Shown: positions 4,822-38,914, numbered from the stretch's first letter. The stretch: DNA of 64,000 nt from an uncultured Syntrophomonadaceae bacterium (GCA_964585925.1 CAZPFS010000002.1:30590-94589); one strand, 5' to 3'. Notes: generated by a model from the sequence alone, not told the origin. Made by a program: numbers and translations.

Positions 4822-4904
4822 GCGGAGAATTATCGGCGCCGGGTTCCCCGGCCCCGATTTGGCCCACTTGAATATTTGCCGGGTATGAAATATAATTTAA
4901 TAAG

Positions 4905-5075
4905 CGATAGCCCTTGCAGGTGCTGTCTGACAGTTAACAGGGAAGCAGGTGCAAAACCTGCGCGGTCGCGCCACTGTAACCGGGATCCATGGTCAGCTAA
5001 CCACTCCGCCCAAACCGCGGGGGAAGGAGACCCTGGAGATGAGCGGAAGCCAGGAAACCTGCCTGCAGGCCACGT
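4905..5075 (+). promoter_or_regulatory. cobalamin (B12) riboswitch aptamer upstream of ABC importer
   Basis: Contains AGGGAAGCAGGTGCAAAACCTGCGCGGTCGCGCCACTGTAACCGGGA, carrying the conserved GCCACTG B12 box and a downstream GGGAAGG element. A P1-like GCAGGTGC...GCCTGCAGG closes the structure. It sits 220 nt upstream of a BtuF-like binding protein. Boundaries are approximate. Confidence 0.65.
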
Positions 5076-5294
5076 ACTCAGCCTTCGCGAAAAAAAGGAG
5101 GTGCGTCTAGAATGAAATATTTTCAGTCCGGGTTTATCTGGCCGGGCTTTTTTATGGCCCCGGCAGCGCCATTAATGCACTCGGTCGGATTTCTCAGTAC
5201 TTCCACCTAGTTGTCAGGGCGGACGAACTTCTCCGCCCGCAGGTGATCCCCCCGTTTTTTTGATACGTTTGTTTTGTAAAGGAGAATTTAAGGG

Positions 5295-6194
5295 ATGACC
5301 AAAAAAAATATAATAATAACCCTGACTGCGTTGTCGATCCTGGTGTTTTTATCCGCCTTTTCAGCTGGTTGTGACCAGATTTCTTTTTCAGCAGAAACTG
5401 TAAAAGATGATCAGGGACGAGAAATTACCCTGACCGGACCGCCGGAAAGAATAATTTCACTCATGCCCGGCAAGACTGAAAAATTGTTTGCGCTTGGGTT
5501 GGGTGACAAGGTAATCGGTATTACCGATTTATGCAATTTTCCGCCCGAATTGGAGGAAAAAAACATTGCCCGGGTAGGCGACGCCTTTAATCTGAGCCTG
5601 GAAACAATCGTTGCCCTCGAGCCGGATCTGGTTGTTGCCAACTGGCTTCCGGAAGGTATGGGCGATCAGCTGGGTTTATTGGGAATACCGGTGTTTTTGA
5701 CCGCCCCTGCCGGAGTGGAAGACACCTTTGACAGTATTTTGCGTCTGGGGAAGCTGACCGGCAAACAGGGGGCGGCGGAAAAGCTGGTGACCGGCATGAG
5801 GGAATCGATCGGGGAAATCACTGAACTGACCCTGAGTATTAAACCCTCCCACCGGCAAACAGTGTTGTGTCTTTTGGACGAAACCCTGTTTGTAGCGGGA
5901 AAAGGCACTTTGCAAGATGAACTGATCACCCTTGCCGGAGGGATAAATGTGGTGAATGAATCCGGCTGGGTTGAGCTGAGCGAGGAGACTCTGCTGCTGT
6001 TGAATCCGGATGTAATGTTATATACCTTCCCTGATGCCGAAAAGCTGCTGTCCAGACCGGAATGGCAGGTGTTGAGATGCATCAAGCTGGGGAAAGTCTA
6101 CAAACTGGACGAGGATCTTTCCTCCAGAACCGGCCCCCGGCTGGGCGCAGCCGCCAAAGAAATATATGGCTTGCTTTATCCTGAAAACCGGTAG
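5295..6194 (+). CDS. ABC transporter periplasmic binding protein, BtuF/FecB class (cobalamin or siderophore)
   Basis: Lipoprotein-like signal ending ...LSAFSAGC. Class III substrate-binding-protein fold signature. Follows a B12 riboswitch. Confidence 0.8.
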   Translation: MTKKNIIITLTALSILVFLSAFSAGCDQISFSAETVKDDQGREITLTGPPERIISLMPGKTEKLFALGLGDKVIGITDLCNFPPELEEKNIARVGDAFNLSLETIVALEPDLVVANWLPEGMGDQLGLLGIPVFLTAPAGVEDTFDSILRLGKLTGKQGAAEKLVTGMRESIGEITELTLSIKPSHRQTVLCLLDETLFVAGKGTLQDELITLAGGINVVNESGWVELSEETLLLLNPDVMLYTFPDAEKLLSRPEWQVLRCIKLGKVYKLDEDLSSRTGPRLGAAAKEIYGLLYPENR

Positions 6195-6204
6195 GGGTGC
6201 GCAG

Positions 6205-7230
6205 ATGCGGGGGAAAAAAACAATTTTCATATTGGCGCTGGCCGGACTCTGCCTGTTGGTGATGCTGTTTTCCCTTGGTATCGGGGCGGTGCATATTGCT
6301 CCCCTGGAAACGGTGAACATAATTATCAGGCGCCTGGCGTTTCAACCGGCGGAAGTGGTTGCCGATACCAGAGAGGCAATTATCTGGCATCTTCGCCTGC
6401 CCCGGATCATGCTGGGTTTTCTGGTGGGGGCTTCGCTGGCGGTGGCCGGGGCGTCTTTTCAGGGGCTGCTGCAGAACCCGCTTGCCGATCCCTATACCCT
6501 GGGTGTTTCCAGCGGCGCCGCCCTGGGAGCCACCGTCGCCATACTTTTTCTGCCAAATAATGCCGGCGCGTCGCTTCCCATTCCGCTGTTTGGCTTCATG
6601 GGGGGGCTGCTGGCGCTATTTATTGTCTATCGTTTGGGGAGGGTTTCCGGACGTCTGCCGGTGGTTACGGTTCTCCTGGCGGGGGTGGTGATCAGCTCTT
6701 TTTTTTCAGCACTGATCTCGCTGAGCATGATCTTTGCCGGCCAGCAGCTGCGAACTGTTTATTTTTGGCTGGCCGGGGGTCTCTCCCTGAAGGGATGGCC
6801 CTATGTATTTTTGATTATCCCCTACTTCATAGCTGGAATGGGAATTCTGCTCTATTATGCCGGCGATCTGAATTTGATTTTGCTGGGTGAGGAAAACGCA
6901 CTCAGCTCGGGGGTAGAGGTGGAAAAGGTAAAAAAAATTGTGCTGGCAGCCGCCTCCCTGATCACGGCCGGAGCAGTATCCGTAAGCGGTATGATTGGTT
7001 TCGTGGGGTTGATAGTTCCGCACGCCATGCGAATTGTGTTGGGACCCGATCACCGGCTGCTCCTGCCTGCCTCCGCCCTTGGCGGGGGGTTGTTCCTGGT
7101 GGGGGTGGATACCGCCGCCCGCACGGCAATGGCGCCGCTGGAGATACCGGTAGGGATCGTCACTGCATTTTTGGGAGCTCCTTTTTTTGTGTTGCTGCTG
7201 AAGCGCTGCCGGGACAAATATCTTTTTTAG
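6205..7230 (+). CDS. FecCD/BtuC-family ABC permease
   Basis: Polytopic membrane protein of about 340 aa with FecCD-type conserved Gly-rich segments. Start taken at the internal ATG after the RBS so it does not overlap the binding protein. Confidence 0.8.
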   Translation: MRGKKTIFILALAGLCLLVMLFSLGIGAVHIAPLETVNIIIRRLAFQPAEVVADTREAIIWHLRLPRIMLGFLVGASLAVAGASFQGLLQNPLADPYTLGVSSGAALGATVAILFLPNNAGASLPIPLFGFMGGLLALFIVYRLGRVSGRLPVVTVLLAGVVISSFFSALISLSMIFAGQQLRTVYFWLAGGLSLKGWPYVFLIIPYFIAGMGILLYYAGDLNLILLGEENALSSGVEVEKVKKIVLAAASLITAGAVSVSGMIGFVGLIVPHAMRIVLGPDHRLLLPASALGGGLFLVGVDTAARTAMAPLEIPVGIVTAFLGAPFFVLLLKRCRDKYLF

Positions 7231-7243
7231 AACAGGTGAGAAT

Positions 7244-8050
7244 ATGGAGGCAGGGATCAAACTTTGCGGGGTTTGTTTCAGCTACGGCGCGAACGAGGTA
7301 CTGACTGATATCAGTTTCGAAGTGGAATGCGGCGATTTTGTGGGTCTGGTCGGACCCAACGGCAGCGGCAAATCCACCCTGCTCAAGAACATGGCCGGAG
7401 TGCTGCGCCCTTTCCGGGGGGAAATATATGTTAACCACACTGAAATCAGGCGCTACCGGAGGCTGGATCTGGCCCGGATGATATCCATGGTAGGCCAGGA
7501 TCAGCATGCGGGCTTTAATTTCCTGGTGGAACAGGTGGTGGAAACCGGAAGGTTTCCTTACCGGGGGAAACTTGCGCTGTTGACGGAAGCGGAACGGCAA
7601 ACGGTGGAACGGGCCATGCATCTCACCGGGTGCCACCATCTGAGAGGACGGGATCTGTTTTCCCTGAGCGGGGGCGAGCGCAGGCGGGTGTTTCTGGCCA
7701 GGGCGCTGGCTCAGGAAACACCCTTGCTGTTGCTTGATGAGCCAACGGTATTTTTGGATATCGCCTACCAATTTGAGCTTCTGGAACTTCTGCAGGAGTT
7801 GAATGCCCGGGAAAAACTTACCGTGGTGGCGGTAATGCATGATCTCAATCTGGCTTCACGTTATTGTGGCAAGCTGTTCATGCTTGACCGGGGAAAATTG
7901 TTTGATCATGGTTCTCCGGCAAAAGTCCTGACCGGGGACAACCTGTCGCAGGTCTACCGTACGGAATTTATGGTGAAACCACATCCGTTGGGAAATTTTC
8001 CCTTAATAATTCCCGTTTCACCCCGGGGCACTGTTCATGGATCAATCTGA
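7244..8050 (+). CDS. ABC transporter ATP-binding protein (FecE/BtuD-like)
   Basis: Walker A GPNGSGKST, signature LSGGERRRV, Walker B LLLLDEP. Confidence 0.85.
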   Translation: MEAGIKLCGVCFSYGANEVLTDISFEVECGDFVGLVGPNGSGKSTLLKNMAGVLRPFRGEIYVNHTEIRRYRRLDLARMISMVGQDQHAGFNFLVEQVVETGRFPYRGKLALLTEAERQTVERAMHLTGCHHLRGRDLFSLSGGERRRVFLARALAQETPLLLLDEPTVFLDIAYQFELLELLQELNAREKLTVVAVMHDLNLASRYCGKLFMLDRGKLFDHGSPAKVLTGDNLSQVYRTEFMVKPHPLGNFPLIIPVSPRGTVHGSI

Positions 8051-23990: not shown

Positions 23991-24019
23991 GGCGGCGGTC
24001 GATGCCGTTTAAATAAACT

Positions 24020-24053
24020 AAATACCCCTTTAAAAGGGGTATTTAATTTTTTA
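24020..24053 (+). terminator. rho-independent terminator after spoIVA
   Basis: AAATACCCCT-ttaaa-AGGGGTATTT 10-bp stem, then AATTTTTTA. Confidence 0.6.
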
Positions 24054-25304: not shown

Positions 25305-25364
25305 AAAATCGGGTTTCAGGAGTAATCCGGAGCGAATCAGGCCACATTCAAAATTATTTGTCCT

Positions 25365-25392
25365 TGACAGTCAGTTGTTTATGAGATATAAA
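25365..25392 (+). promoter_or_regulatory. sigma-A type promoter for the metalloregulator/feo cluster
   Basis: TTGACA (25365-25370), 16-nt spacer, TATAAA (25387-25392). Confidence 0.45.
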
Positions 25393-25429
25393 AAAGTTAG
25401 GCACTACTAACATTGAGGGGGTGGATAAA

Positions 25430-25858
25430 GTGTCCCCGCTGCCGATCAGTGCCTCCATGCAAGATTATCTGGAAGGTATACTCAATCTGTCCTGCCAGCA
25501 GGACGCGGTGAGGGTAACTGATATTGCGGAAAAATTGAAGCTGACCAAGCCCAGTGTGGCCCAGGCCCTAAAACAACTGCGGATCCAGGGGCTTATCAAA
25601 CAAAGCCACTATGGGCCGGTACAGTTGACTGAAAAGGGGCAGCGATACGCGCTGATAGTCCGGAGGCGCCACCAGGTATTGAGAAGTTTTTTGGTGGAAG
25701 TGCTGGGCCTTGATCACCAGGCTGCTGAAAGGGATGCCTGTCAAATGGAACATGCCGTGAGCAGCGAAACAATCGAAAGGCTAATTGGCTTTTTGGTGGA
25801 AGGAAAATATTGCACGAATGACTTCAATGTTTCCGAAAGAGATGAAACTGAACGCTGA
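25430..25858 (+). CDS. DtxR/MntR-family metal-dependent transcriptional repressor
   Basis: MQDYLEGILNL...VTDIAEKLKLTKPSVAQALKQL winged-HTH, C-terminal metal-binding and dimerisation region. Start is ambiguous between GTG 25430 and ATG 25457. Confidence 0.75.
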   Translation: MSPLPISASMQDYLEGILNLSCQQDAVRVTDIAEKLKLTKPSVAQALKQLRIQGLIKQSHYGPVQLTEKGQRYALIVRRRHQVLRSFLVEVLGLDHQAAERDACQMEHAVSSETIERLIGFLVEGKYCTNDFNVSERDETER

Positions 25859-25933
25859 CAAGCTATAGATAATTTTTAGGTTGATATTGTTGAAACCAGA
25901 CACAATTACACGCTGCTTTGAAAAGAGGTGCAG

Positions 25934-26188
25934 GTGATGAAAATAGTATCCCTGACAGGGATGGAGCCCGGGCAAACCGGTACGGTCAAGGAAATCGGGG
26001 GAGGATACAGGATGGCGGCGCGCCTGCAATCCCTGGGTATTTATCCCGGCCAAAAGGTACTCAAACTGAGCTCTGTGTTCAATAAAGGGCCGGTGGTGAT
26101 AGAGATAAACCGCTCCCAGGTAGCTTTGGGTTATGGAAGGGCCAGCCGCATTTTTGTAGAACTGGAAAACAAGACAGGGAACAGGTAG
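25934..26188 (+). CDS. feoA: ferrous iron transport protein A
   Basis: Small SH3-like FeoA, KIVSLTGMEPGQTGTVKEI. Confidence 0.8.
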   Translation: MMKIVSLTGMEPGQTGTVKEIGGGYRMAARLQSLGIYPGQKVLKLSSVFNKGPVVIEINRSQVALGYGRASRIFVELENKTGNR

Positions 26189-26198
26189 AGGAATATTC

Positions 26199-28058
26199 AT
26201 GAGAGCTAAAAAAATTGTATTGGTGGGGAACCCCAATGTGGGGAAAAGCGTTATATTTTCGCAGCTTACGGGGGCCCGGGTGGTTATCTCCAATTATCCG
26301 GGGACCACGGTGGAGTATATCCGCGGGCGGATGAACATCGGTTCCCGGGAGTACGAGTTGCTTGATGCTCCGGGCACCTACAATCTGGATCCGGCCTGCC
26401 GGGCGGAAGAGGTTACCACCAACCTGGTAGATCAGGCTGATATGGTGATAAATGTGGTTGATGCCACCAATCTGGAGCGTAACCTTTATTTAACCCGCCA
26501 GCTGTTGGAAAAACGGATCCCGTTGGTCGTAGTATTGAACATGGTCGATGAGGCGGCTCACAAGGGAGTATATATTAATATTTCCGATCTGCAACAGGAG
26601 CTGGGCGTGCCGGTCATACCTACGGTGGCCATAAGCGGGGAAGGGCTGTCGAAGCTGGCTGCCGCTCTCTCCCGTGCCGAACCGGGAAAGGCCGATCCCT
26701 TGACCCCTGACGAGCGCTGGGTGTGGATCGGCTCTGTTACCGGGCGGGTTCAGAAGATCCGCCACCGTCATCCCACCTGGTTGGAAACATTGGAGATGGC
26801 CAGTATAAAACCCTCCACCGGGGTGCCCCTGGCTGCGGCAATTATGTTTTTGTCTTTCAAAATAATAATAGGCCTGGGCGAATGGTTGCAGGAACTGCTG
26901 CTTCGCATCTTTTTCAATCCATTTTATCTGCCGGCCATGAATTTTTTGAGCCGCCGGCTGGGGGAGGGCAGCTTTCTGCACAACCTGCTGATCGGTAAAC
27001 TTCACCAGGGCGAAATTCTGCTGGAAGAATCCATGGGACTTCTTACCACCGGGATATTTATTGTGTTCGGGATCGTATTGCCATTTTTGGTGCTGTTTTA
27101 CCTGGGCCTGGGTTTTCTGGAGGATTGCGGTTACCTGCCCCGTCTGTCGGTGATGACCGACCGGGTAATGCACCGGCTGGGGCTTCACGGTTTTGCCATT
27201 ATCCCGATGATCCTCGGGCTGGGATGCAATGTACCCGCCATCATATCTGCCCGCAGCCTGGAGAGCAGGCGGGAAAGATTTTTAGCCTGCACCCTGATCT
27301 CCATTACCATTCCTTGTGCGGCCCAGATGTCCATGGTAATCGGCCTGGTAGGCCGTTACGGCGGGGCCTACCTGAGTGTGATATTTGCCACTTTATTCTT
27401 TATCTGGGTTGTCCTGGGGCTGATCCTGGATCGGGTTATGCCGGGATACACCCCTTCCATGATCATGGAAATACCACCCTACCGGTGGCCCCATCTTAAA
27501 AGTCAATTTCAAAAGCTCATGATGAGGCTCAATCATTTTATGGCGGAAGCCCTGCCTTTTATATTTATTGGTATAATATTGATCAATCTGCTTCATATCT
27601 CGGGGGCCATCGGTTATCTGGCCACGGCATTGTCGCCGTTGGTGCGGGGTCTTCTGGGCCTGCCGGGAGAGGCGGTTTCCACTTTGTTGGTCGGCCTGCT
27701 GCGCAAGGACGTGGCGGTAGCCATGCTGGTTCCGCTCGGTCTCACGGCCCGACAGTTTGTAGTTGGCGCTACCGTGCTGGTGACTTATTTTCCCTGTGCG
27801 GCTACTTTCATTATTTTATACAAAGAACTCGGACCGAGGGATCTGGGGGCGGCAGTGCTCATTATGTTCAGCACATCTCTTGCTGCCGGGACCATGATCA
27901 ATTTATTGCTGGATACCGTTTTGCCTCCGGCGCTGCTCTCTTTGTTGCTGATCGGATTGGGTATAATGATAGTGACGCTTTTTGGCGGTATCTCCGACCG
28001 GCGCGAAGATTTGGCTATTTCAAAATCAGGTATTTCTACCTCCAGAAAGGGGATTTAG
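26199..28058 (+). CDS. feoB: ferrous iron transport protein B
   Basis: N-terminal G domain GNPNVGKSVIF, then a polytopic membrane domain of about 400 aa. 619 aa. Confidence 0.9.
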   Translation: MRAKKIVLVGNPNVGKSVIFSQLTGARVVISNYPGTTVEYIRGRMNIGSREYELLDAPGTYNLDPACRAEEVTTNLVDQADMVINVVDATNLERNLYLTRQLLEKRIPLVVVLNMVDEAAHKGVYINISDLQQELGVPVIPTVAISGEGLSKLAAALSRAEPGKADPLTPDERWVWIGSVTGRVQKIRHRHPTWLETLEMASIKPSTGVPLAAAIMFLSFKIIIGLGEWLQELLLRIFFNPFYLPAMNFLSRRLGEGSFLHNLLIGKLHQGEILLEESMGLLTTGIFIVFGIVLPFLVLFYLGLGFLEDCGYLPRLSVMTDRVMHRLGLHGFAIIPMILGLGCNVPAIISARSLESRRERFLACTLISITIPCAAQMSMVIGLVGRYGGAYLSVIFATLFFIWVVLGLILDRVMPGYTPSMIMEIPPYRWPHLKSQFQKLMMRLNHFMAEALPFIFIGIILINLLHISGAIGYLATALSPLVRGLLGLPGEAVSTLLVGLLRKDVAVAMLVPLGLTARQFVVGATVLVTYFPCAATFIILYKELGPRDLGAAVLIMFSTSLAAGTMINLLLDTVLPPALLSLLLIGLGIMIVTLFGGISDRREDLAISKSGISTSRKGI

Positions 28059-28059
28059 T

Positions 28060-28881
28060 ATGGAAGAAACCAAAATTCGTAATGCTGAGGACTCCCCAAA
28101 AACTCTTCCCGAAAAGCTGGGCCAACCGGAGCACAGCCAGATCCGGCATACCATTGCTGTTATGAGCGGGAAGGGTGGGGTGGGTAAATCATCGGTTTCC
28201 GCCCTGCTGGCGGTGGCCCTTTCCCGGGAAGGGTACCGGGTCGGTTTGCTGGATGCCGATATAACCGGCCCCAGTATTCCTACCCTGTTTGGGCTTCATG
28301 GACAGCCGTCAATTAATGAAAAAAAATTGGTGCCCCCTTCCAGCAGGCTGGGGATCAAGATAATGTCGCTGAACCTTTTGCTGCCGCGGGAGGATGATCC
28401 GGTAATATGGCGAGGGCCTTTGATCGGGGGAGCGGTAAAACAGTTTTGGACCGATGTGCTTTGGGGCACGCTTGACTACCTGGTAGTGGATCTGCCCCCC
28501 GGCACCGGGGACGCTCCCCTGACTGTACTGCAATCACTGCCCCTGTCCGGCCTGATCATCGTCACCTCTCCCCAGGAACTGGCGGTGATGGTGGTTAAGA
28601 AAGCCATAAATATGGCCCGCATGCTGGAGGTTCCCATAATCGGGCTGATCGAAAACATGAGCGGCCTGGCCTGCCCCCATTGCGGGGAGAAGCTGGAGCT
28701 GTTCGGGCCAAGTCAGGCCGAAAAGGTATCGGCAGCCACCGGAATCAGGCTGCTCGGGAAAATCCCCCTGGATCCTGAAATTTCAAAGCTGGGGGACCGC
28801 GGGGAGATCGAGGAGTACGAAGTGAAATTCTTGCGCACAATCCCTGATTTTCTTTCCGGAAAGGATGCAAGCAGGAATTGA
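28060..28881 (+). CDS. Mrp/ApbC/NBP35-family Fe-S cluster carrier ATPase
   Basis: Deviant Walker A SGKGGVGKSS, conserved CPHC motif near the C-terminus. ATG lies 2 nt after the feoB stop. Confidence 0.85.
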   Translation: MEETKIRNAEDSPKTLPEKLGQPEHSQIRHTIAVMSGKGGVGKSSVSALLAVALSREGYRVGLLDADITGPSIPTLFGLHGQPSINEKKLVPPSSRLGIKIMSLNLLLPREDDPVIWRGPLIGGAVKQFWTDVLWGTLDYLVVDLPPGTGDAPLTVLQSLPLSGLIIVTSPQELAVMVVKKAINMARMLEVPIIGLIENMSGLACPHCGEKLELFGPSQAEKVSAATGIRLLGKIPLDPEISKLGDRGEIEEYEVKFLRTIPDFLSGKDASRN

Positions 28882-28917
28882 TTCAGCAAATCAATATCCA
28901 TATAGGAGGTATTCAAG

Positions 28918-29289
28918 ATGAAATTGGCAATATGTGCCCAGGGTGGAGAATTGTCTTCAGCAGTAGATCAGCGTTTCGGACGCTGCCCGTATTTTGTGAT
29001 TCTGGACACGGAGAGCAAAGAGGTAATAAAATCCATTCCCAATAGTGCTGCCGGCGCCTCCGGCGGCGCCGGAACCCAAACCGCTCGTCTTTTATTTTCG
29101 GAGAAGGTCGATGCGGTGGCGGTGGGCAATGTCGGTCCCAATGCCGCCAATGCTCTCAATGCGGCCGGCATCAAGATTTACAGCGGAATAAATGGAACGG
29201 TGGAGGAAGCTCTGGATCTTTATCTCGATGGCAAACTGTCATCGAGCCCCGGCGCGACAGTAGATTCCCATCATGGCTCCAAACAGTAA
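28918..29289 (+). CDS. NifX/NafY/NifB-C-terminal-type (dinitrogenase FeMo-cofactor binding domain) protein
   Basis: KLAICAQGGELSSAVDQRFGRCPYFVILD...VDAVAVGNVGPNA matches the PF02579-type fold signature. 123 aa. Confidence 0.7.
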   Translation: MKLAICAQGGELSSAVDQRFGRCPYFVILDTESKEVIKSIPNSAAGASGGAGTQTARLLFSEKVDAVAVGNVGPNAANALNAAGIKIYSGINGTVEEALDLYLDGKLSSSPGATVDSHHGSKQ

Positions 29290-29304
29290 AAGGAGGCGTT
29301 GTTC

Positions 29305-29664
29305 TTGAAAATTGCGATCACCACTGAACAAAATTTTGTAGCCCAGCATTTTGGTCACTGTCCCGAATATACCCTGATCGAAATTGAAGGTGATAAAATT
29401 GTTTCCCGGGAAGTAATCCCCAACCCCGGTCACCAGCCCGGCTTCCTGCCCGGCTACCTGGCTCAGCGCGGCGTGTCCTGCATAATTGCCGGGGGCATGG
29501 GTCAGAGAGCCATCGAGCTGTTCACCGAACAGAACATCAAGGTAATTGTGGGCATTGGCGGTCCTGTGGATCAGGCCGTGGAAGATTACCTTTCAGGAAA
29601 GCTGAAATCAAAGGAAAGCCTCTGTGACCACGATCTTCGGCCCGGTGATCAAGGCTGTCACTGA
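29305..29664 (+). CDS. second NifX/NifB-type cofactor-binding domain protein with Cys/His-rich tail
   Basis: KIAITTEQNFVAQHFGHCPEYTLIE...GVSCIIAGGMGQRA core. C-terminal tail SLCDHDLRPGDQGCH. TTG start 8 nt after an AAAGGAGG RBS. Confidence 0.65.
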   Translation: MKIAITTEQNFVAQHFGHCPEYTLIEIEGDKIVSREVIPNPGHQPGFLPGYLAQRGVSCIIAGGMGQRAIELFTEQNIKVIVGIGGPVDQAVEDYLSGKLKSKESLCDHDLRPGDQGCH

Positions 29665-29713
29665 TAACGATGGGAATCAAATACACGGCGCCCCTGGAAA
29701 GAAGAGACTATAA

Positions 29714-30577
29714 ATGATCATCAGTGTGATCAGCGGAAAAGGCGGCACGGGTAAAACCTTTGTGGCCACCAATCTGGTTCAGGCCATGGATCCGGGGAAA
29801 AGGATCCGGTTTTTGGACTGCGATGTGGAGGAACCCAATGCTCATCTGTTTTTAAAACCGGATCTTACAGGCAGCCAACCGGTAACCATACCCGTGCCGG
29901 AAATAGACCGGGAAAAATGTACCTTGTGTGGTCTGTGCGCCGAGGTTTGCGCTTTCAATGCGCTTTTGGTGGGCAAAGACCGGGTGTTGGTATTTGAGCA
30001 GCTATGCCACGGTTGCGGTGGCTGCAGTTATTTTTGTCCGGAAAAGGCCATTGTTGAAATCGACCGGCCGATCGGTGTGCTGGAAACCGGGTGCACCGGT
30101 GAAATTCAATTTGTTCAGGGCAGACTTGAACCGGGCGAGGCGCTTTCACCGCCTTTGATCAAGGCGGTGAAAAGCAAAGTAGGCTCCGAGGGCCTGACGG
30201 TGATCGATGCCCCGCCTGGAAACTCCTGTTCGGCGGTGGAAACGGTCAAGGGCAGCGATTACTGTGTTCTGGTTACCGAGCCGACCCCGTTCGGCCTGCA
30301 CGATCTGAAGCTGGCGGTGGAACTGACCAGGATAATGGGCATTCCGGCCGGAGTGGTGATCAACCGTTACCTGGAAAACAGCGGCAACCTGACCATCGAA
30401 CAGTACTGCCAGCAGGAAGGGCTGCCGGTTCTGTTAAAGATACCTTTCGACAGGGAGCTGGCCTCCTGCTATGCCCGCGGCGAGTTGGCGGCAAACAATT
30501 TTGCTCACTGGCGGCAGGTATTTGCCGATCTGGGAAAACGGGTTACCGGAAACGGGGAGGTTGGCGAACATGCATGA
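29714..30577 (+). CDS. MinD/CooC-superfamily P-loop ATPase with inserted 2x[4Fe-4S] ferredoxin domain
   Basis: Deviant Walker A SGKGGTGKT. Inserted CTLCGLCAEVC and CHGCGGCSYFCP motifs. 287 aa. Confidence 0.75.
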   Translation: MIISVISGKGGTGKTFVATNLVQAMDPGKRIRFLDCDVEEPNAHLFLKPDLTGSQPVTIPVPEIDREKCTLCGLCAEVCAFNALLVGKDRVLVFEQLCHGCGGCSYFCPEKAIVEIDRPIGVLETGCTGEIQFVQGRLEPGEALSPPLIKAVKSKVGSEGLTVIDAPPGNSCSAVETVKGSDYCVLVTEPTPFGLHDLKLAVELTRIMGIPAGVVINRYLENSGNLTIEQYCQQEGLPVLLKIPFDRELASCYARGELAANNFAHWRQVFADLGKRVTGNGEVGEHA

Positions 30578-31433
30578 GCTGGTAGTGATCAGCGGCAAAG
30601 GGGGAACAGGCAAAACAACCCTTACCGCCTGTTTCGCGGCTCTGGCCGGGGGAAACGCAGTGCTGGTGGATGCCGATGTGGACGCTCCCAATCTGAGCCT
30701 GGTTACCAAACCGCAGCAACTTGAAAGTTTTGAGTTCCGGGCCTCAAAAATAGCCGATATTAAACTGCAGAAGTGCAGCGCCTGCGGCTTATGCCTTGAA
30801 CTATGCCGTTTTGATGCTATTTCAGATCACTACCTTGTTGATCCCATCGGCTGCGAGGGCTGTGGTGTCTGCAGCCGTGCCTGCCCTGAAAAGGCCATCA
30901 CCATGGAAGAAGTTCTTTCCGGGCAATGGTTTATCTCTCAAACCTCCTATGGCAAACTGGTGCATGCCCGTCTGGGGGTGGCTGAAGAAAATTCCGGCAA
31001 AATGGTCACCGCGATCCGGGAAAGAGCAAAACAAATAGCGGCTGAGGAGAATAAACGATACCTGATTATCGATGGGCCGCCGGGTATCGGCTGCCCGGTG
31101 ATTGCCTCCCTGGGCGGAACCGATGCGGCGCTGCTGGTAACCGAACCCACCTTATCCGGAATCCACGATCTGGAGCGAATCGTATCGGTCTGCCGCCATT
31201 TCAAGATACCGGCTTCGGTATGCATTAATCGCTCCGATCTGTCCTTGGAAAATACCCGGGCCATCGAAAAATACTGCCGGCGGGAATCGATCCCCATGGC
31301 GGCTAAAATACCCTTTGACCGGTCATTTGTGGAAGCCTCCGCCCAGGGAGTACCTGTGGTTGAATATACGGACGGACCGGTTTACAAAAGCATCAAACAG
31401 CTCTGGGAAAATATGATTTCAATGCTCAATTGA
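30570..31433 (+). CDS. second MinD/CooC-superfamily ATPase with inserted 2x[4Fe-4S] ferredoxin domain
   Basis: SGKGGTGKTT Walker A. CSACGLCLELC and CEGCGVCSRACP motifs. The start overlaps the upstream paralogue by 8 nt. Confidence 0.75.
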   Translation: MHELVVISGKGGTGKTTLTACFAALAGGNAVLVDADVDAPNLSLVTKPQQLESFEFRASKIADIKLQKCSACGLCLELCRFDAISDHYLVDPIGCEGCGVCSRACPEKAITMEEVLSGQWFISQTSYGKLVHARLGVAEENSGKMVTAIRERAKQIAAEENKRYLIIDGPPGIGCPVIASLGGTDAALLVTEPTLSGIHDLERIVSVCRHFKIPASVCINRSDLSLENTRAIEKYCRRESIPMAAKIPFDRSFVEASAQGVPVVEYTDGPVYKSIKQLWENMISMLN

Positions 31434-31465
31434 AACAGATGCAGATTGAACGGGAGGCAAGGGGT

Positions 31466-31843
31466 ATGTACACTGAAAAACTGATCGAACACTTCAAGCA
31501 GCCCAGAAATGTGGGGGAGATTCCCGATGCAGACGGCATCGGAACAATCGGTGATCCCTCTTGCGGTGATTTCCTGCGTGTGTTTATCAAGGTTTCGGAG
31601 GGAAGGATAAGTGAATTCAAATTTAAGGTTTACGGCTGCCCCGCGGCCATCGCCACCACCAGTATTCTGAGCGAAATAGTTTTGGGAAAAACCCTGGACG
31701 AGGCGATCCGGATCACCGATCTGGATATAGCTGAAGCCCTGGGAGGCCTGCCGGATCCAAAAATGCACTGTTCCAACCTGGGGGCGGAAGGGCTCTTTTA
31801 CGCGGTGATGGATTACCGGTCACGCCACGATTCGGCCCGGTAG
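31466..31843 (+). CDS. IscU/NifU-type Fe-S cluster assembly scaffold
   Basis: MYTEKLIEHFKQPRNVG start. Three scaffold cysteines (GDPSCGD, YGCPAA, MHCSNL). Start chosen at the internal ATG matching the IscU N-terminus. Confidence 0.8.
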   Translation: MYTEKLIEHFKQPRNVGEIPDADGIGTIGDPSCGDFLRVFIKVSEGRISEFKFKVYGCPAAIATTSILSEIVLGKTLDEAIRITDLDIAEALGGLPDPKMHCSNLGAEGLFYAVMDYRSRHDSAR

Positions 31844-31941: not shown

Positions 31942-32928
31942 TTATGGATCAGAGGCCGCCTCCATGTTGATCACTTCCGGCAAGGATATCGATTGAACTC
32001 CTTCCGGCACAGCCAGGGTTATCCTTTTCTCAAGTGGATCCACCCTGATTACCCGACCGGTAACGCAGTGGCCGCCAGACCTGCCCGATACGGTTAACAT
32101 GACCATTGAACCCTGCTCCAGGGATTGGTTTACCAGGACCTCAAAGCTCTCCCATTTCAAGGCAGAGCAGGCGGTATCCCTCCCGTTTCCGGGCGGCCCG
32201 GTGATGCCGGTGCAGTTGTTCCCGGTGTTCCGGCAGGATGAGCCGGCTGCAGGCAAACTGATTGGCGGTTTTTTTGCTCATGCTTCATGACCTCCGATCA
32301 TTTTGATTCGGTTAAACAATGGCTTCCCGGACCAAGGGAGCTGGCCCGGAACAGGCTGGCCGATCCGAACTCATCCCGGATACTGTCCACGGCCAGGGTC
32401 AAGGCGGCAGCCTTATCCCGGCGATCAAACAGGGACAGTTCTCCTTATCGCTGACCAGGCCGGCAAGCCTCACTCCCGCCACCCTCAGCGGCAGGCGATC
32501 CCAATGGGGTTCAAAAAGATTCATTACCTGGGGGCAAACCTCTCCCCGGCAGTAAACGCTTACCACTGTATCCACTCTTTCCAGGGCGCGGGCCCTGCGG
32601 CAGACCTCTTCGGCTTGATCTTTTCCATTTTCCAGTAATCCCGGTGCAGGATCATCGATTGCCCCGCTCCCCTTAAACAGTTGGAACCGGAGGAAACAGG
32701 CGAGCAATCAATGCCGTGGGCATTGAGCCACAGGATCTCCCCGTTGATGCCCCAGCGGCGGGTTAATATATCTTTGGGTATTTTAGCCTGAAGGGGATTT
32801 TCCCCGATCCCGATCCGGCAGCGGATATTTATCTCCTGCCGCACCCGGTCGATGATCTGCCGCGAGGTCTGAAAAGGTGAGCCAAACAAATTTTGGCAGC
32901 CGGTGATATCCAAAAATTGTTCATCCAA
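31942..32928 (-). pseudogene. Y-family DNA polymerase (DinB/Pol IV-like) remnant, 5'-truncated and frameshifted
   Basis: Three minus-strand ORF pieces in two frames. The piece at 32560-32928 reads LDITGCQNLFGSP...RCRIGIGENPLQAKIPKD, matching the Pol IV thumb region from about residue 100. The piece at 32399-32707 is in another frame. The piece at 31942-32256 returns to the first frame and is little-finger-like. An in-frame TGA lies 9 nt upstream of the first piece, so the palm N-terminus is absent. Confidence 0.6.
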
Positions 32929-34393: not shown

Positions 34394-34876
34394 ATGATAT
34401 TTACTGTTATTTTATATGTTTTGACCGCCTGTTTACTCTTGCTGTCATGGGCAAAAGACAGAAAAAGGACAGAGACGGCTTTAAAAAAGGCCTGGAAATC
34501 ATTTGAAAATATACTGCCCCAGTTGCTTTCAATCCTGGTGATTATCGGTATCATGCTGGCCCTGCTGACCCCCCAGTCCATCTCGAAGCTGATTGGCCAA
34601 CAATCGGGGTGGGTGGGTATGGCGGTGGCCTCTATAATCGGCTCGATCACTTTGATCCCCGGATTCGTGGCGTTTCCACTGGCCTCGGCACTGCTGAAAA
34701 GCGGGGCGGGATTCATGCAGATTGCGGTTTTTGTATCCACGCTGATGATGGTGGGATTTGTGACCCTGCCAATGGAAATCAAATATTTCGGTAAAAAGGC
34801 TTCCATTGCCCGAAATCTCCTGGCATTTATCTTCTCTTATGTGGTAGCCCTGGTGGTGGGGGTGGTTCTGGGATGA
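34394..34876 (+). CDS. permease half (COG0701-type predicted permease), subunit 1
   Basis: Four hydrophobic helices. The stop overlaps the start of the second half. Confidence 0.55.
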   Translation: MIFTVILYVLTACLLLLSWAKDRKRTETALKKAWKSFENILPQLLSILVIIGIMLALLTPQSISKLIGQQSGWVGMAVASIIGSITLIPGFVAFPLASALLKSGAGFMQIAVFVSTLMMVGFVTLPMEIKYFGKKASIARNLLAFIFSYVVALVVGVVLG

Positions 34877-35409
34877 AGGCGCTGCTCAGAAGATACATTT
34901 TATTTGTCATGTTGGTCCTGATCAATATGATTCTTCTCTTAATCTATCCGGCTCTGGGTCAAAAATCTTTTGAGATCACCGGAAAGAATGCCCTGGAAAT
35001 GCTCTCCATATTGCCTCCCATATTTGTCCTTCTCGGCCTTCTGGATGTCTGGGTGGAGCGCGAAACCATGATCAGGCTGATGGGGGAGAAATCCGGATTT
35101 CTGGGGGTAGTTGTCGCTTTCTTCCTGGGCTCGGCCGCGGCGGGGCCGCTCTATGCGGCTTTTCCCGTAGCCGGGGTTCTTTTGCGCAAGGGCAGCAAGT
35201 TATCCAATGTATTTATTTTGATCGGATCCTGGTCGACGGTGAAGATCCCCATGCTCTTATTTGAAACCTCATCTATGGGCTGGCAATTTACCCTGACCAG
35301 GTTTCTGATCAACCTGCCCGGCATTGCTTTGATTGCCTACGTGACCGAAAAACTTTTAAATGATCGGGAGAAGGAGCATATCTACGATCAGGCCTCCGCC
35401 TTGAAATGA
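34873..35409 (+). CDS. permease half (COG0701-type), subunit 2
   Basis: Homologous repeat of the preceding gene with ATGA overlap, consistent with a split two-gene permease. Confidence 0.55.
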   Translation: MKALLRRYILFVMLVLINMILLLIYPALGQKSFEITGKNALEMLSILPPIFVLLGLLDVWVERETMIRLMGEKSGFLGVVVAFFLGSAAAGPLYAAFPVAGVLLRKGSKLSNVFILIGSWSTVKIPMLLFETSSMGWQFTLTRFLINLPGIALIAYVTEKLLNDREKEHIYDQASALK

Positions 35410-38625: not shown

Positions 38626-38701
38626 TGGTGAGCCATGAAGGACTCGAACCTTCGACACCCTGATTAAAAGTCAGGTGCTCTACCACCTGAGCTAATGGCC
38701 C
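38626..38701 (-). tRNA. tRNA-Lys (anticodon UUU)
   Basis: Reverse complement GGGCCATTAGCTCAGGTGGTAGAGCACCTGACTTTTAATCAGGGTGTCGAAGGTTCGAGTCCTTCATGGCTCACCA. 7-bp acceptor stem, anticodon loop CTTTTAA, CCA encoded. Confidence 0.85.
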
Positions 38702-38740
38702 ACTAATTATGTTACGGCCGACCAGACCGTTTTAATCAAA

Positions 38741-38826
38741 TGGTGGAGAGGACTGGATTCGAACCAGTGAAGGCAATGCCAGCAGATTTACAGTCTGCCC
38801 CCTTTGGCCAGCTTGGGTACCTCTCC
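38741..38826 (-). tRNA. tRNA-Tyr (anticodon GUA), long variable arm
   Basis: Reverse complement GGAGAGGTACCCAAGCTGGCCAAAGGGGGCAGACTGTAAATCTGC...TGGTTCGAATCCAGTCCTCTCCACCA. Anticodon loop CTGTAAA, CCA encoded. Confidence 0.85.
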
Positions 38827-38838
38827 ATAATATTTGCC

Positions 38839-38914
38839 TGGAGCCGACGACCAGAATTGAACTGGTAACCTGCTGATTACAAATCAGCTGCTCTGCCAAT
38901 TGAGCTACGTCGGC
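38839..38914 (-). tRNA. tRNA-Thr (anticodon UGU)
   Basis: Reverse complement GCCGACGTAGCTCAATTGGCAGAGCAGCTGATTTGTAATCAGCAGGTTACCAGTTCAATTCTGGTCGTCGGCTCCA. Anticodon loop TTTGTAA, CCA encoded. Confidence 0.85.

Follow-up and report, generated by a model that had tools for sequence, protein, structure and literature searches.

A probable iron-responsive operon linking Fe(II) import to an orange protein-type iron-sulfur gene set in an uncultured Syntrophomonadaceae bacterium

The locus considered here is a run of nine tightly packed, co-directional genes on the + strand, between 25.36 and 31.84 kb, of a 64,000-nucleotide (nt) stretch of DNA, hereafter the window, from an uncultured Syntrophomonadaceae bacterium (GCA_964585925.1 CAZPFS010000002.1:30590-94589). 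Judged from its sequence, it is probably a single iron-responsive operon of a spore-forming anaerobic Firmicute, which would couple the import of Fe(II) to an iron-sulfur (Fe-S) complex of the orange protein (ORP) type. Open reading frame (ORF) calling and Pfam searches assign the products, in gene order, to a two-domain metalloregulator of the DtxR/MntR family (25430..25858, 142 amino acids (aa)), FeoA (25937..26188, 83 aa), the Fe(II) transporter FeoB with its N-terminal G domain (26199..28058, 619 aa), an Mrp/NBP35-type Fe-S carrier ATPase (28060..28881), two proteins of family PF02579, termed NifX-A (28918..29289, 123 aa) and NifX-B (29305..29664, 119 aa), two paralogous MinD-type ATPases with a 2x[4Fe-4S] ferredoxin domain inserted in both (ATPase 1, 29714..30577, and ATPase 2, 30570..31433, both of 287 aa), and an Fe-S scaffold paralogue of the IscU/NifU_N type (31466..31843, 125 aa). 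A preliminary description of the window had proposed a + strand run with these products between 25.4 and 31.8 kb; profile searches bear this out, and the domain assignments of all nine products hold in both Pfam and NCBIfam. That description counted ten genes, whereas nine are counted here, and every gap is too short to hold one more.

The intergenic gaps are, in gene order, 69, 10, 1, 36, 9-15, 49, -8 and 32 nt. The close feoB/mrp junction described previously is confirmed, with a single base between the feoB stop (28056-28058) and the mrp ATG (28060), as is the 8-nt overlap of the two ATPase genes, in which the ATPase 2 ATG (30570) precedes the ATPase 1 stop (30575-30577). An overlap that had also been claimed between ATPase 2 and the IscU-like gene would need the TTG at 31430, the start chosen by the ORF caller. 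The ATG at 31466 is the likelier start, because a GGGAGG Shine-Dalgarno sequence (31452-31457) lies 8 nt ahead of it and because the 32-nt gap that it leaves agrees with the gaps of 21-41 nt in orthologous loci. Positions of ribosome-binding sites and orthologue N-termini similarly suggest GTG 25430 as the start of the regulator gene (ORF caller, 25421), ATG 25937 as that of feoA (ORF caller, GTG 25928), with AAAGAGG 8 nt before the ATG, and TTG 29305 as that of the NifX-B gene. No terminator-like hairpin exceeding the level of shuffled sequence was found in the internal gaps or in the 100 nt past the IscU-like gene; this agrees with a single transcript, of which the 3' end is undefined. Rfam elements were not found within the cluster.

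Upstream of the first gene, a sigma-A-type promoter (25364..25392, + strand) can be read directly as a -35 element TTGACA (25364-25369), a 17-nt spacer and a -10 element TATAAA (25387-25392); the consensus promoter scanner overlooked this promoter only because it requires T as the sixth base of the -10, which is A here. The inverted repeat reported near this promoter in the preliminary description is likewise present (GTTAG..CTAAC, 25396-25411), within a putative operator, the 'iron box'-like palindrome AAGTTAGGCACTACTAACAT (25394..25413, + strand), which begins 2 nt past the -10 and spans the likely transcription start. The same arrangement can be followed in related loci, which are designated by L numbers and described further below. 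Both hexamers, TTGACA and TATAAA, have aligned counterparts in the orthologous L081, L082, L085 and L087 promoters and are also present upstream of the L088 and L089 genes; in L052 there is a TTGACA, and the -10 is less clear. In seven of the eight promoters (the window, L081, L082, L085, L087, L088 and L089) a clade palindrome, AGTTAGG-N4-CCTAACT, starts 2-3 nt past the -10, and tandem half-sites take its place in the eighth, L052; sites of this type occur only once per locus. The L088 copy shares 15 contiguous bases with the IdeR iron box, TTAGGTTAGGCTAACCTAA (PMC4598388). As a stand-alone statistical signal the window copy was rejected, 1.7 chance matches being expected, and it was retained as a phylogenetic footprint. 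On these alignments the inverted repeat is such a footprint, and what supports it is its conserved position and not the match itself.

The regulator has an N-terminal helix-turn-helix (HTH) domain (PF01325, E 2e-12) and a metal-binding and dimerisation domain (PF02742, E 1e-19), and its best relatives in the PDB are MntR, IdeR and DtxR. Equivalents of DtxR Cys102, Glu105 and His106 are kept here, in the motif DACQMEH, and in all Feo-linked orthologues. The unit resembles IdeR/DtxR operons in its HTH-plus-metal-domain repressor with these three residues, in the palindromic TTAGG..CCTAA operator over the promoter and in having an iron transporter as the target. It differs from them in that the regulator is without the third, SH3-like domain and has Asp at the Met10 position as in MntR, that the half-sites are spaced by an N4 centre, and that the regulator gene heads its own operon. 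Operator and context together point to Fe(II) as the metal that the regulator would sense.

FeoA matches PF04023 (E 4e-16), and FeoB, with FeoA adjoining, passes the TIGR00437 cutoff (356.5 versus 315.65 bits) and contains FeoB_N, two Gate domains and FeoB_C. At the far end of the cluster, the IscU-like protein matches PF01592 (NifU_N, E 2e-39) and conserves the three scaffold Cys (in CGD, GC and HC), although its equivalog scores are under the cutoffs, with 160 versus 187.9 bits for TIGR03419 and 112 versus 192 bits for TIGR01999.

Mrp matches PF10609 (E 2e-94) and has the deviant Walker A motif GKGGVGKS and a CxxC motif, CPHC. The NCBIfam model NF041136 describes MrpORP, also named Orp9, in which an Mrp/NBP35 domain is fused to a PF02579 'Di-Nase' domain (PMC6345978); it has 365 positions and an equivalog cutoff of 450 bits. 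Mrp covers model positions 2-231 with 341.8 bits, which is under the cutoff, and NifX-B covers positions 265-365 with 110 bits. Since the two proteins match these successive parts of one model, Mrp and NifX-B together constitute a split MrpORP, Mrp being its P-loop half and NifX-B a stand-alone Di-Nase domain, with the NifX-A gene lying between the two. NifX-B matches PF02579 (E 6e-21) and, in the PDB, the TM1816/PH0822-type structures 1t3v, 1o13 and 2yx6. MrpORP's Di-Nase domain is marked by CXHFGHCE and a C-terminal CDH (PMC6345978); NifX-B has AQHFGHCPE, with Ala in place of the first Cys, and LCDH near its C-terminus. HFGxC and the C-terminal Cys are kept across 76 members of the NifX-B family.

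NifX-A (PF02579, E 5e-25) is of the ORP (Orp8)/MTH1175/TM1290 type. Its PDB matches are MTH1175 (1eo1, E 8e-22), 1rdu (E 5e-19) and the D. gigas ORP (2wfb, E 2e-14), the last covering residues 2-112, so that MTH1175 and TM1290 are closer than the D. gigas protein. The C-terminal tail, SSSPGATVDSHHGSKQ, forms no cationic Gly/Arg/Trp-rich extension. NCBIfam NifX models match neither of the two PF02579 proteins. The domain call of the preliminary description accordingly stands, but the label 'NifX' is misleading: these are proteins of the ORP/MTH1175 and MrpORP types, which share the PF02579 fold with NifX and NafY and come from other subfamilies. In L087, a locus from Dethiobacteria, both PF02579 types are fused in a single 259-aa protein (L087:4708-5487), and Desulfobacterota fuse Mrp with NifX-B instead. 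These differing fusions argue that Mrp, NifX-A and NifX-B act together.

ATPases 1 and 2 each have two CxxCxxCxxxC ferredoxin motifs inserted inside a MinD fold, and both retain the signature-lysine Walker A. ATPase 1 matches CbiA, ParA and Fer4 in Pfam, and its invariant elements are SGKGGTGKT, DCDVEEPN, the eight ferredoxin Cys, PPGxSC and LVTEPTPFG. In an AlphaFold model (mean predicted local distance difference test, pLDDT, 89.7) the nearest folds are archaeal MinD, ATPase-type HypB, FleN, ApbC and NifH; the ferredoxin-bearing ATPase is absent from solved structures. The ATPases had been called CooC-like, a label that has to be abandoned. They share with CooC the SIMIBI-class deviant Walker A fold, but contain a ferredoxin insertion that CooC does not have and are closer to MinD, HypB and ApbC by sequence and by fold; CooC is absent from the top matches of both kinds, and no carbon monoxide dehydrogenase (CODH) gene is nearby. 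A conserved Cys lies seven residues past the Walker B Asp in both proteins, within DAPPGNSC in ATPase 1 (residues 165-172, window 30206-30229) and PPGIGC in ATPase 2. In NifH, the same spacing separates Asp125 from the cluster ligand Cys132. By analogy, and speculatively, the Cys of the ATPases may ligate a cluster or metal at a dimer interface.

Taken together, the genes from mrp through ATPase 2 are, by the families of their products, the gene set of an ORP complex. In Desulfovibrio vulgaris this complex includes the P-loop proteins Orp3 and Orp4, both of which have a pair of [4Fe-4S] ferredoxin motifs, the PF02579 orange protein Orp8 and MrpORP; in vitro, Orp3 and Orp4 receive Fe-S clusters from MrpORP, and the two co-purify with Orp8 (PMC6345978). 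The D. vulgaris genes are arranged as orp3-4-5, orpR and orp7-8-9 (PMC6345978, PMC8359166), and the authors of that work called the physiological role unclear. Common to both systems are an Mrp/NBP35 carrier with CxxC, a Di-Nase domain with HFGHC and CDH, a single-domain PF02579 protein of the ORP type, two ferredoxin-motif P-loop ATPases (approximately 39% identical here, compared with '41% similar' for Orp3 and Orp4) and a restriction to anaerobes. The present locus differs in that MrpORP is split, with the ORP-type gene between its halves, and Mrp is without the N-terminal Cys motif of MrpORP. Moreover, the genes form one co-directional operon instead of two divergent ones, a sigma-A promoter and a DtxR-family repressor replace sigma-54, OrpR and IHF, and feoAB and an IscU paralogue are included in the unit. 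No Orp5-like ([2Fe-2S]) or Orp7-like gene was found and the operon contains no extra small gene, reference Orp5 and Orp7 sequences not having been compared. The preliminary description had regarded the module as one that recurs in anaerobes with no defined function. As to function this is fair, but the module is not an unstudied orphan, the ORP complex of D. vulgaris having been overlooked.

The distribution of the module, which comprises four to six genes, was examined by running a profile of ATPase 1 against a single genome from each species, which gave 80 loci, and by searching these with nine window proteins; counts are minimums, as many contigs end within the locus. The loci span Bacillota, Chloroflexota, Desulfobacterota, Omnitrophota, Planctomycetota, Acidobacteriota, Ignavibacteria, Thermoplasmata, Thorarchaeota and other groups. 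ATPase 2 is present in 78 of them, in most cases no more than about 100 nt from ATPase 1, and the NifX-A and NifX-B types are each present in 72; all four of these genes occur together in 66 of the 80 loci, Mrp in 40 and the IscU paralogue in 33. Eight Desulfobacterota loci have a single ORF in which Mrp and NifX-B are fused. The three fused products tested, from L044, L049 and L077, score 505-523 bits against the MrpORP cutoff of 450, and their genes stand beside both ATPase orthologues with a sigma-54 activator gene in the locus, which is the canonical ORP layout. The ATPase family can thus be tied to Orp3 and Orp4 by synteny, because its orthologues sit beside bona fide MrpORP genes.

Recent duplication of the gene pairs was rejected, the identities being 39% between the ATPases and 29% between NifX-A and NifX-B, with separate orthologues for each across phyla. 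The earlier suggestion that the paralogue pairs form heteromeric complexes remains plausible, given that the ATPase genes are adjacent in 78 of 80 loci and that Orp3 co-purifies with Orp4 and Orp8 (PMC6345978), but the pairs are not recent duplicates.

Clustering of the other ORFs in the 80 loci identified recurrent companions, namely DUF5320 (37 loci), Zn_ribbon_8 (33), the metallo-beta-lactamase fold and DUF134 (18 each), sigma-54 activators (17, mostly in Desulfobacterota), a radical-SAM family (14), ARMT1-like proteins (12), the Fur family (11), and CGGC and DUF364 (nine each). A family search found no DUF5320, Zn_ribbon_8, DUF134, Lactamase_B, Fur, ARMT1, CGGC or DUF364 member anywhere in the window. 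Nitrogenase, CODH and hydrogenase families are not among the recurrent neighbours, which, with the four-gene core in 66 of 80 loci, upholds the view that the module is an autonomous and recurrent one of anaerobes. The same holds within the window, where nitrogenase, NifB, CODH and hydrogenase genes number zero among the 30 ORFs of at least 250 aa outside the cluster, all of them housekeeping, and the preliminary statement that nifHDK, nifB, CODH and hydrogenase structural genes are absent from it is borne out. That the module helps to mature a nitrogenase, CODH or hydrogenase whose genes lie in another part of the genome is very unlikely on this evidence. Such a role would suit the PF02579 fold that is common to NifX, NafY and NifB, the part of the SIMIBI ATPases NifH, CooC and HypB in maturing such enzymes and the hyp operon found approximately 4 kb downstream in L087. 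However, the candidate client enzymes are missing from both sets of neighbours, the nif/CODH context itself is lacking, CooC is not a top match, and the PF02579 proteins group with the ORP/MTH1175 and MrpORP types and not with NifX/NafY.

The match of NifX-A to the D. gigas ORP raises a further alternative, namely a part in Mo/W or Cu homeostasis, in which the PF02579 proteins would handle heterometal clusters of thiomolybdate or thiotungstate and the ATPases would be insertases. The D. gigas protein holds a non-covalent S2MoS2CuS2MoS2 cluster (cited in PMC6345978), and a MOSC-domain gene follows the operon in L081. Nevertheless, this alternative is improbable, as molybdate, tungstate and copper transport or regulator genes are absent from the operon and from the recurrent neighbours of the 80 loci, the transporter and regulators that do recur are of iron type, and MrpORP's Di-Nase domain binds an Fe-S and not a Mo-Cu cluster.

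A storage function is also suggested by the relatives of NifX-A. IssA of Pyrococcus furiosus is a thioferrate storage protein that consists of an IPR003731 domain and a long cationic Gly/Arg/Trp-rich C-terminal tail; its globular domain alone binds Fe and S, and MTH1175 has been placed in the IssA clade by Vaccaro et al. (PMC5524996). NifX-A has the IPR003731/PF02579 globular domain, and MTH1175 is its nearest solved relative. The module could then be an IssA-like store or buffer of inorganic Fe-S polymer (thioferrate) or of spare clusters, loaded and unloaded by the ATPases and released on demand, to which the Gly/Arg/Trp-rich DUF5320-type proteins of 37 of the 80 loci, and of L085, L088 and L089, would lend themselves. 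Against this, NifX-A is without the cationic tail and is accompanied by ATPases, and the window has no DUF5320 gene. In addition, plentiful iron and sulfide are the conditions in which IssA is made, but a module that is co-transcribed with feoAB under an iron-box operator would be expected to be expressed at low iron. Storage of this kind is therefore a rather doubtful explanation, if a less remote one than heterometal handling. The DUF5320-type small proteins of the three relatives (L085:8667-8987, L088:8602-8922 and L089:7981-8298) combine an N-terminal half that is rich in Gly, Arg, Trp and Tyr with a C-terminal half that is an acidic coiled coil, and their composition recalls the thioferrate-binding cationic tail of IssA.

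The association with iron uptake can be followed in closer relatives. Seven were examined (L081, L082, L085, L086, L087, L088 and L089), with ATPase 1 identities of 56-73%. In L081, L082, L085, L088 and L089 the order is regulator-feoA-feoB-mrp-NifX-A-NifX-B-(DUF5320-like)-ATPase 1-ATPase 2-(IscU). L087 has regulator-feoA-feoB-x-IscU-Mrp-(fused NifX-A/B)-ATPases, and L052, from the 80-locus scan, has regulator-feoAB-Fur-NifX-B-NifX-A-ATPases. At least eight genomes keep the layout, and the flanks are of at least four different kinds. The window and L081 have spoIVA and an HD-domain gene there, L082 has DAPDH and acetyl-CoA hydrolase, L085, L088 and L089 have tatC, and L087 has codY downstream. 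Since the flanks differ between genomes, the linkage of feo to the module survives rearrangement. The distance from the feoB stop to the mrp start is between -1 and +2 nt in five genomes (L081, L082, L085, L088 and L089). The physical link to iron uptake that had been proposed from the window is thus conserved in one Firmicute lineage across differing genomic contexts.

Chance juxtaposition was the reading that the preliminary description reserved for the case of failure; feo and its regulator gene would then be an ordinary operon, and the ORP-type genes an unrelated one that has its own promoter and is next to it by accident. This reading could draw on the fact that feoB is near only about five of the 80 species-level loci and on weak promoter-like matches inside the cluster, e.g. 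at 29003 (consensus scan). However, the order recurs across the genomes and flanks given above, the feo link is kept in L087 and L052 even though the module order is shuffled there, and feoB and mrp abut or overlap in five genomes with no terminator between them. With this conserved synteny, chance juxtaposition is effectively excluded.

Fur-family genes provide a further tie to metal regulation. L086 (Moorellaceae) is without feo and has a Fur-family gene inside the module, and Fur-family genes lie in or directly beside the module in L010, L014, L019, L022, L024, L026, L027, L031, L041, L052, L076 and L086. This association, in several unrelated phyla, is a second and independent tie to metal regulation.

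In the mechanism that these observations suggest, an Fe(II)-loaded DtxR/IdeR-like repressor bound to the palindrome would cover the transcription start of a strong sigma-A promoter, and iron scarcity would release it from the DNA and allow all nine genes to be transcribed. FeoAB would import Fe(II), and the IscU-type scaffold would build clusters, with sulfur from free sulfide or from a desulfurase encoded elsewhere. Mrp would carry a bridging [4Fe-4S] cluster on its CxxC motif and load the two ferredoxin-bearing ATPases and both PF02579 cluster-binding proteins. The ATPases would probably form an ATP-sandwich heterodimer, the equivalent of Orp3/Orp4, and the loaded complex, using ATP and its own low-potential clusters, would assemble Fe-S or related metal-sulfide species, hold them or pass them on to clients. 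The logic parallels that of iron-repressed SUF operons. As in SUF/ISC operons, among them the suf operon that Fur represses in E. coli, a scaffold (here of the IscU type), an ATPase and a carrier are combined with iron-regulated expression, which is predicted here, and the capacity for Fe-S assembly would be raised under iron scarcity. In contrast to those operons, the present one is without a cysteine desulfurase, SufBCD, HscAB or an A-type carrier, and has MinD-type ATPases with built-in ferredoxin, PF02579 proteins and an iron importer.

Several points weigh against an iron-responsive operon of this kind. The window copy of the operator has two mismatches to the clade consensus and is the most degenerate of the set, and matches with up to three mismatches number one in 64 kb against approximately 1.7 expected by chance. 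The residue at the DtxR Met10 position is the MntR-like Asp in the regulator and in all Feo-linked orthologues, and the closest NCBIfam models are MntR, all far under the equivalog cutoff. Met10/Cys102 as opposed to Asp/Glu at the primary metal site of DtxR separates Fe from Mn sensors, and the regulator may, from its residues, sense Mn(II). Expression and repressor binding in the source organism are predictions from sequence. Furthermore, feoB is near the module in approximately five of the 80 loci and a DtxR-type gene in two, Feo, DtxR or Fur accompany only a minority of the species-level loci, and the iron link may be lineage-specific. The correspondence of the ATPases to Orp3 and Orp4 relies on architecture and synteny and not on direct alignment to the D. 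vulgaris proteins. No cysteine desulfurase gene is present in the operon or among the recurrent neighbours of the 80 loci, and no client enzyme is encoded within the cluster. It is also counter-intuitive that iron starvation should induce a complex with so high an Fe-S content, unless the complex is SUF-like. Lastly, the sole ORP phenotype reported in Desulfovibrio is morphological, suggesting cell division (PMC8359166).

That phenotype leads to the alternative that ORP-type proteins act in cell division or positioning as MinD/ParA-like ATPases, the iron genes adjoining them for cluster maturation only. Inactivation of OrpR in D. vulgaris causes morphological defects and MrpORP is found at the cell pole (PMC8359166, PMC6345978, PMC4672049), and the AlphaFold model of ATPase 1 is nearest to MinD. 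However, minC, minE, ftsZ and similar genes are not recurrent neighbours of the 80 loci, where the recurrent partners are Fe-S or metal proteins and iron regulators, feoB abuts mrp, an IscU paralogue lies within the module, and the D. vulgaris authors themselves leave the role unclear. A division function for the complex is therefore unlikely, and coupling of Fe(II) import to an ORP-type Fe-S complex is the preferred reading.

A broader proposal, which is advanced only tentatively and is itself doubtful, is that the ORP-type module, made up of Mrp, both PF02579 proteins, a ferredoxin-MinD ATPase heterodimer and the IscU paralogue, represents a self-contained, anaerobe-specific machinery for Fe-S assembly and delivery, distinct from ISC, SUF and NIF. 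It would receive Fe(II) by a hand-off from FeoB to Mrp, as suggested by the abutting genes, would use free sulfide with no desulfurase and would be induced by iron limitation. Literature searches returned nothing relevant on a link between Feo and ORP in searchable papers, and the split MrpORP, the sigma-A/DtxR-type iron-box control, and the incorporation of feoAB and IscU with feoB abutting mrp appear to be undescribed in them.

The cluster lies in an ordinary chromosomal stretch of a spore-forming Firmicute, which includes genes for SpoIVA, SpoIIP, YIEGIA, Der, GpsA, IspH-S1, RNase Y and GltX. On its 5' side are spoIVA, with a strong terminator (24019-24045), and then the HD-domain gene; on its 3' side (window 31942-32928, - strand) a YolD-like ORF and, in two fragments, a Y-family DNA polymerase (IMS, IMS_C) appear to be the remains of a gene pair, in convergent orientation to the operon. 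The terminator and HD-domain gene at one end and the opposite-strand ORFs at the other bound the unit. In the syntenic L081, MOSC and DUF364 genes occupy the position of the YolD/polymerase ORFs. Two half-size ArsP_1 permease ORFs (window 34394-35409, + strand; 160 and 178 aa, with a 4-nt overlap) are a conserved two-gene arrangement and not a frameshift, because L081 has the identical split. Three consecutive tRNA genes (window 38629-38914, - strand) lie in an ORF-poor region (37.7-39.0 kb). Further away, a cobalamin riboswitch (RF00174, window 4901-5080, + strand, 99 bits) stands just 5' of a Peripla_BP_2/FecCD/ABC_tran transporter (5295-8050, + strand), which is, because of the riboswitch directly upstream, a B12 (BtuFCD-type) uptake operon and not an iron-siderophore system.

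Systems that combine MinD-ferredoxin ATPases with PF02579 proteins span anaerobes from Asgard-related archaea to Firmicutes, and the only proposal for them based on genetics is 'cell division'. The Firmicute version, with its iron-box promoter, its tie to FeoB and its own IscU, offers genomic evidence for a role of ORP-type complexes in iron-sulfur homeostasis. 'NifX' and 'CooC' annotations in non-diazotrophs should accordingly not be taken to indicate nitrogenase or CODH functions. Should the broader proposal of a self-contained machinery be true, an ancient iron-sulfur pathway would account for the long-enigmatic orange protein complex and for the COG1149/COG1433 gene pairs, which are widespread.

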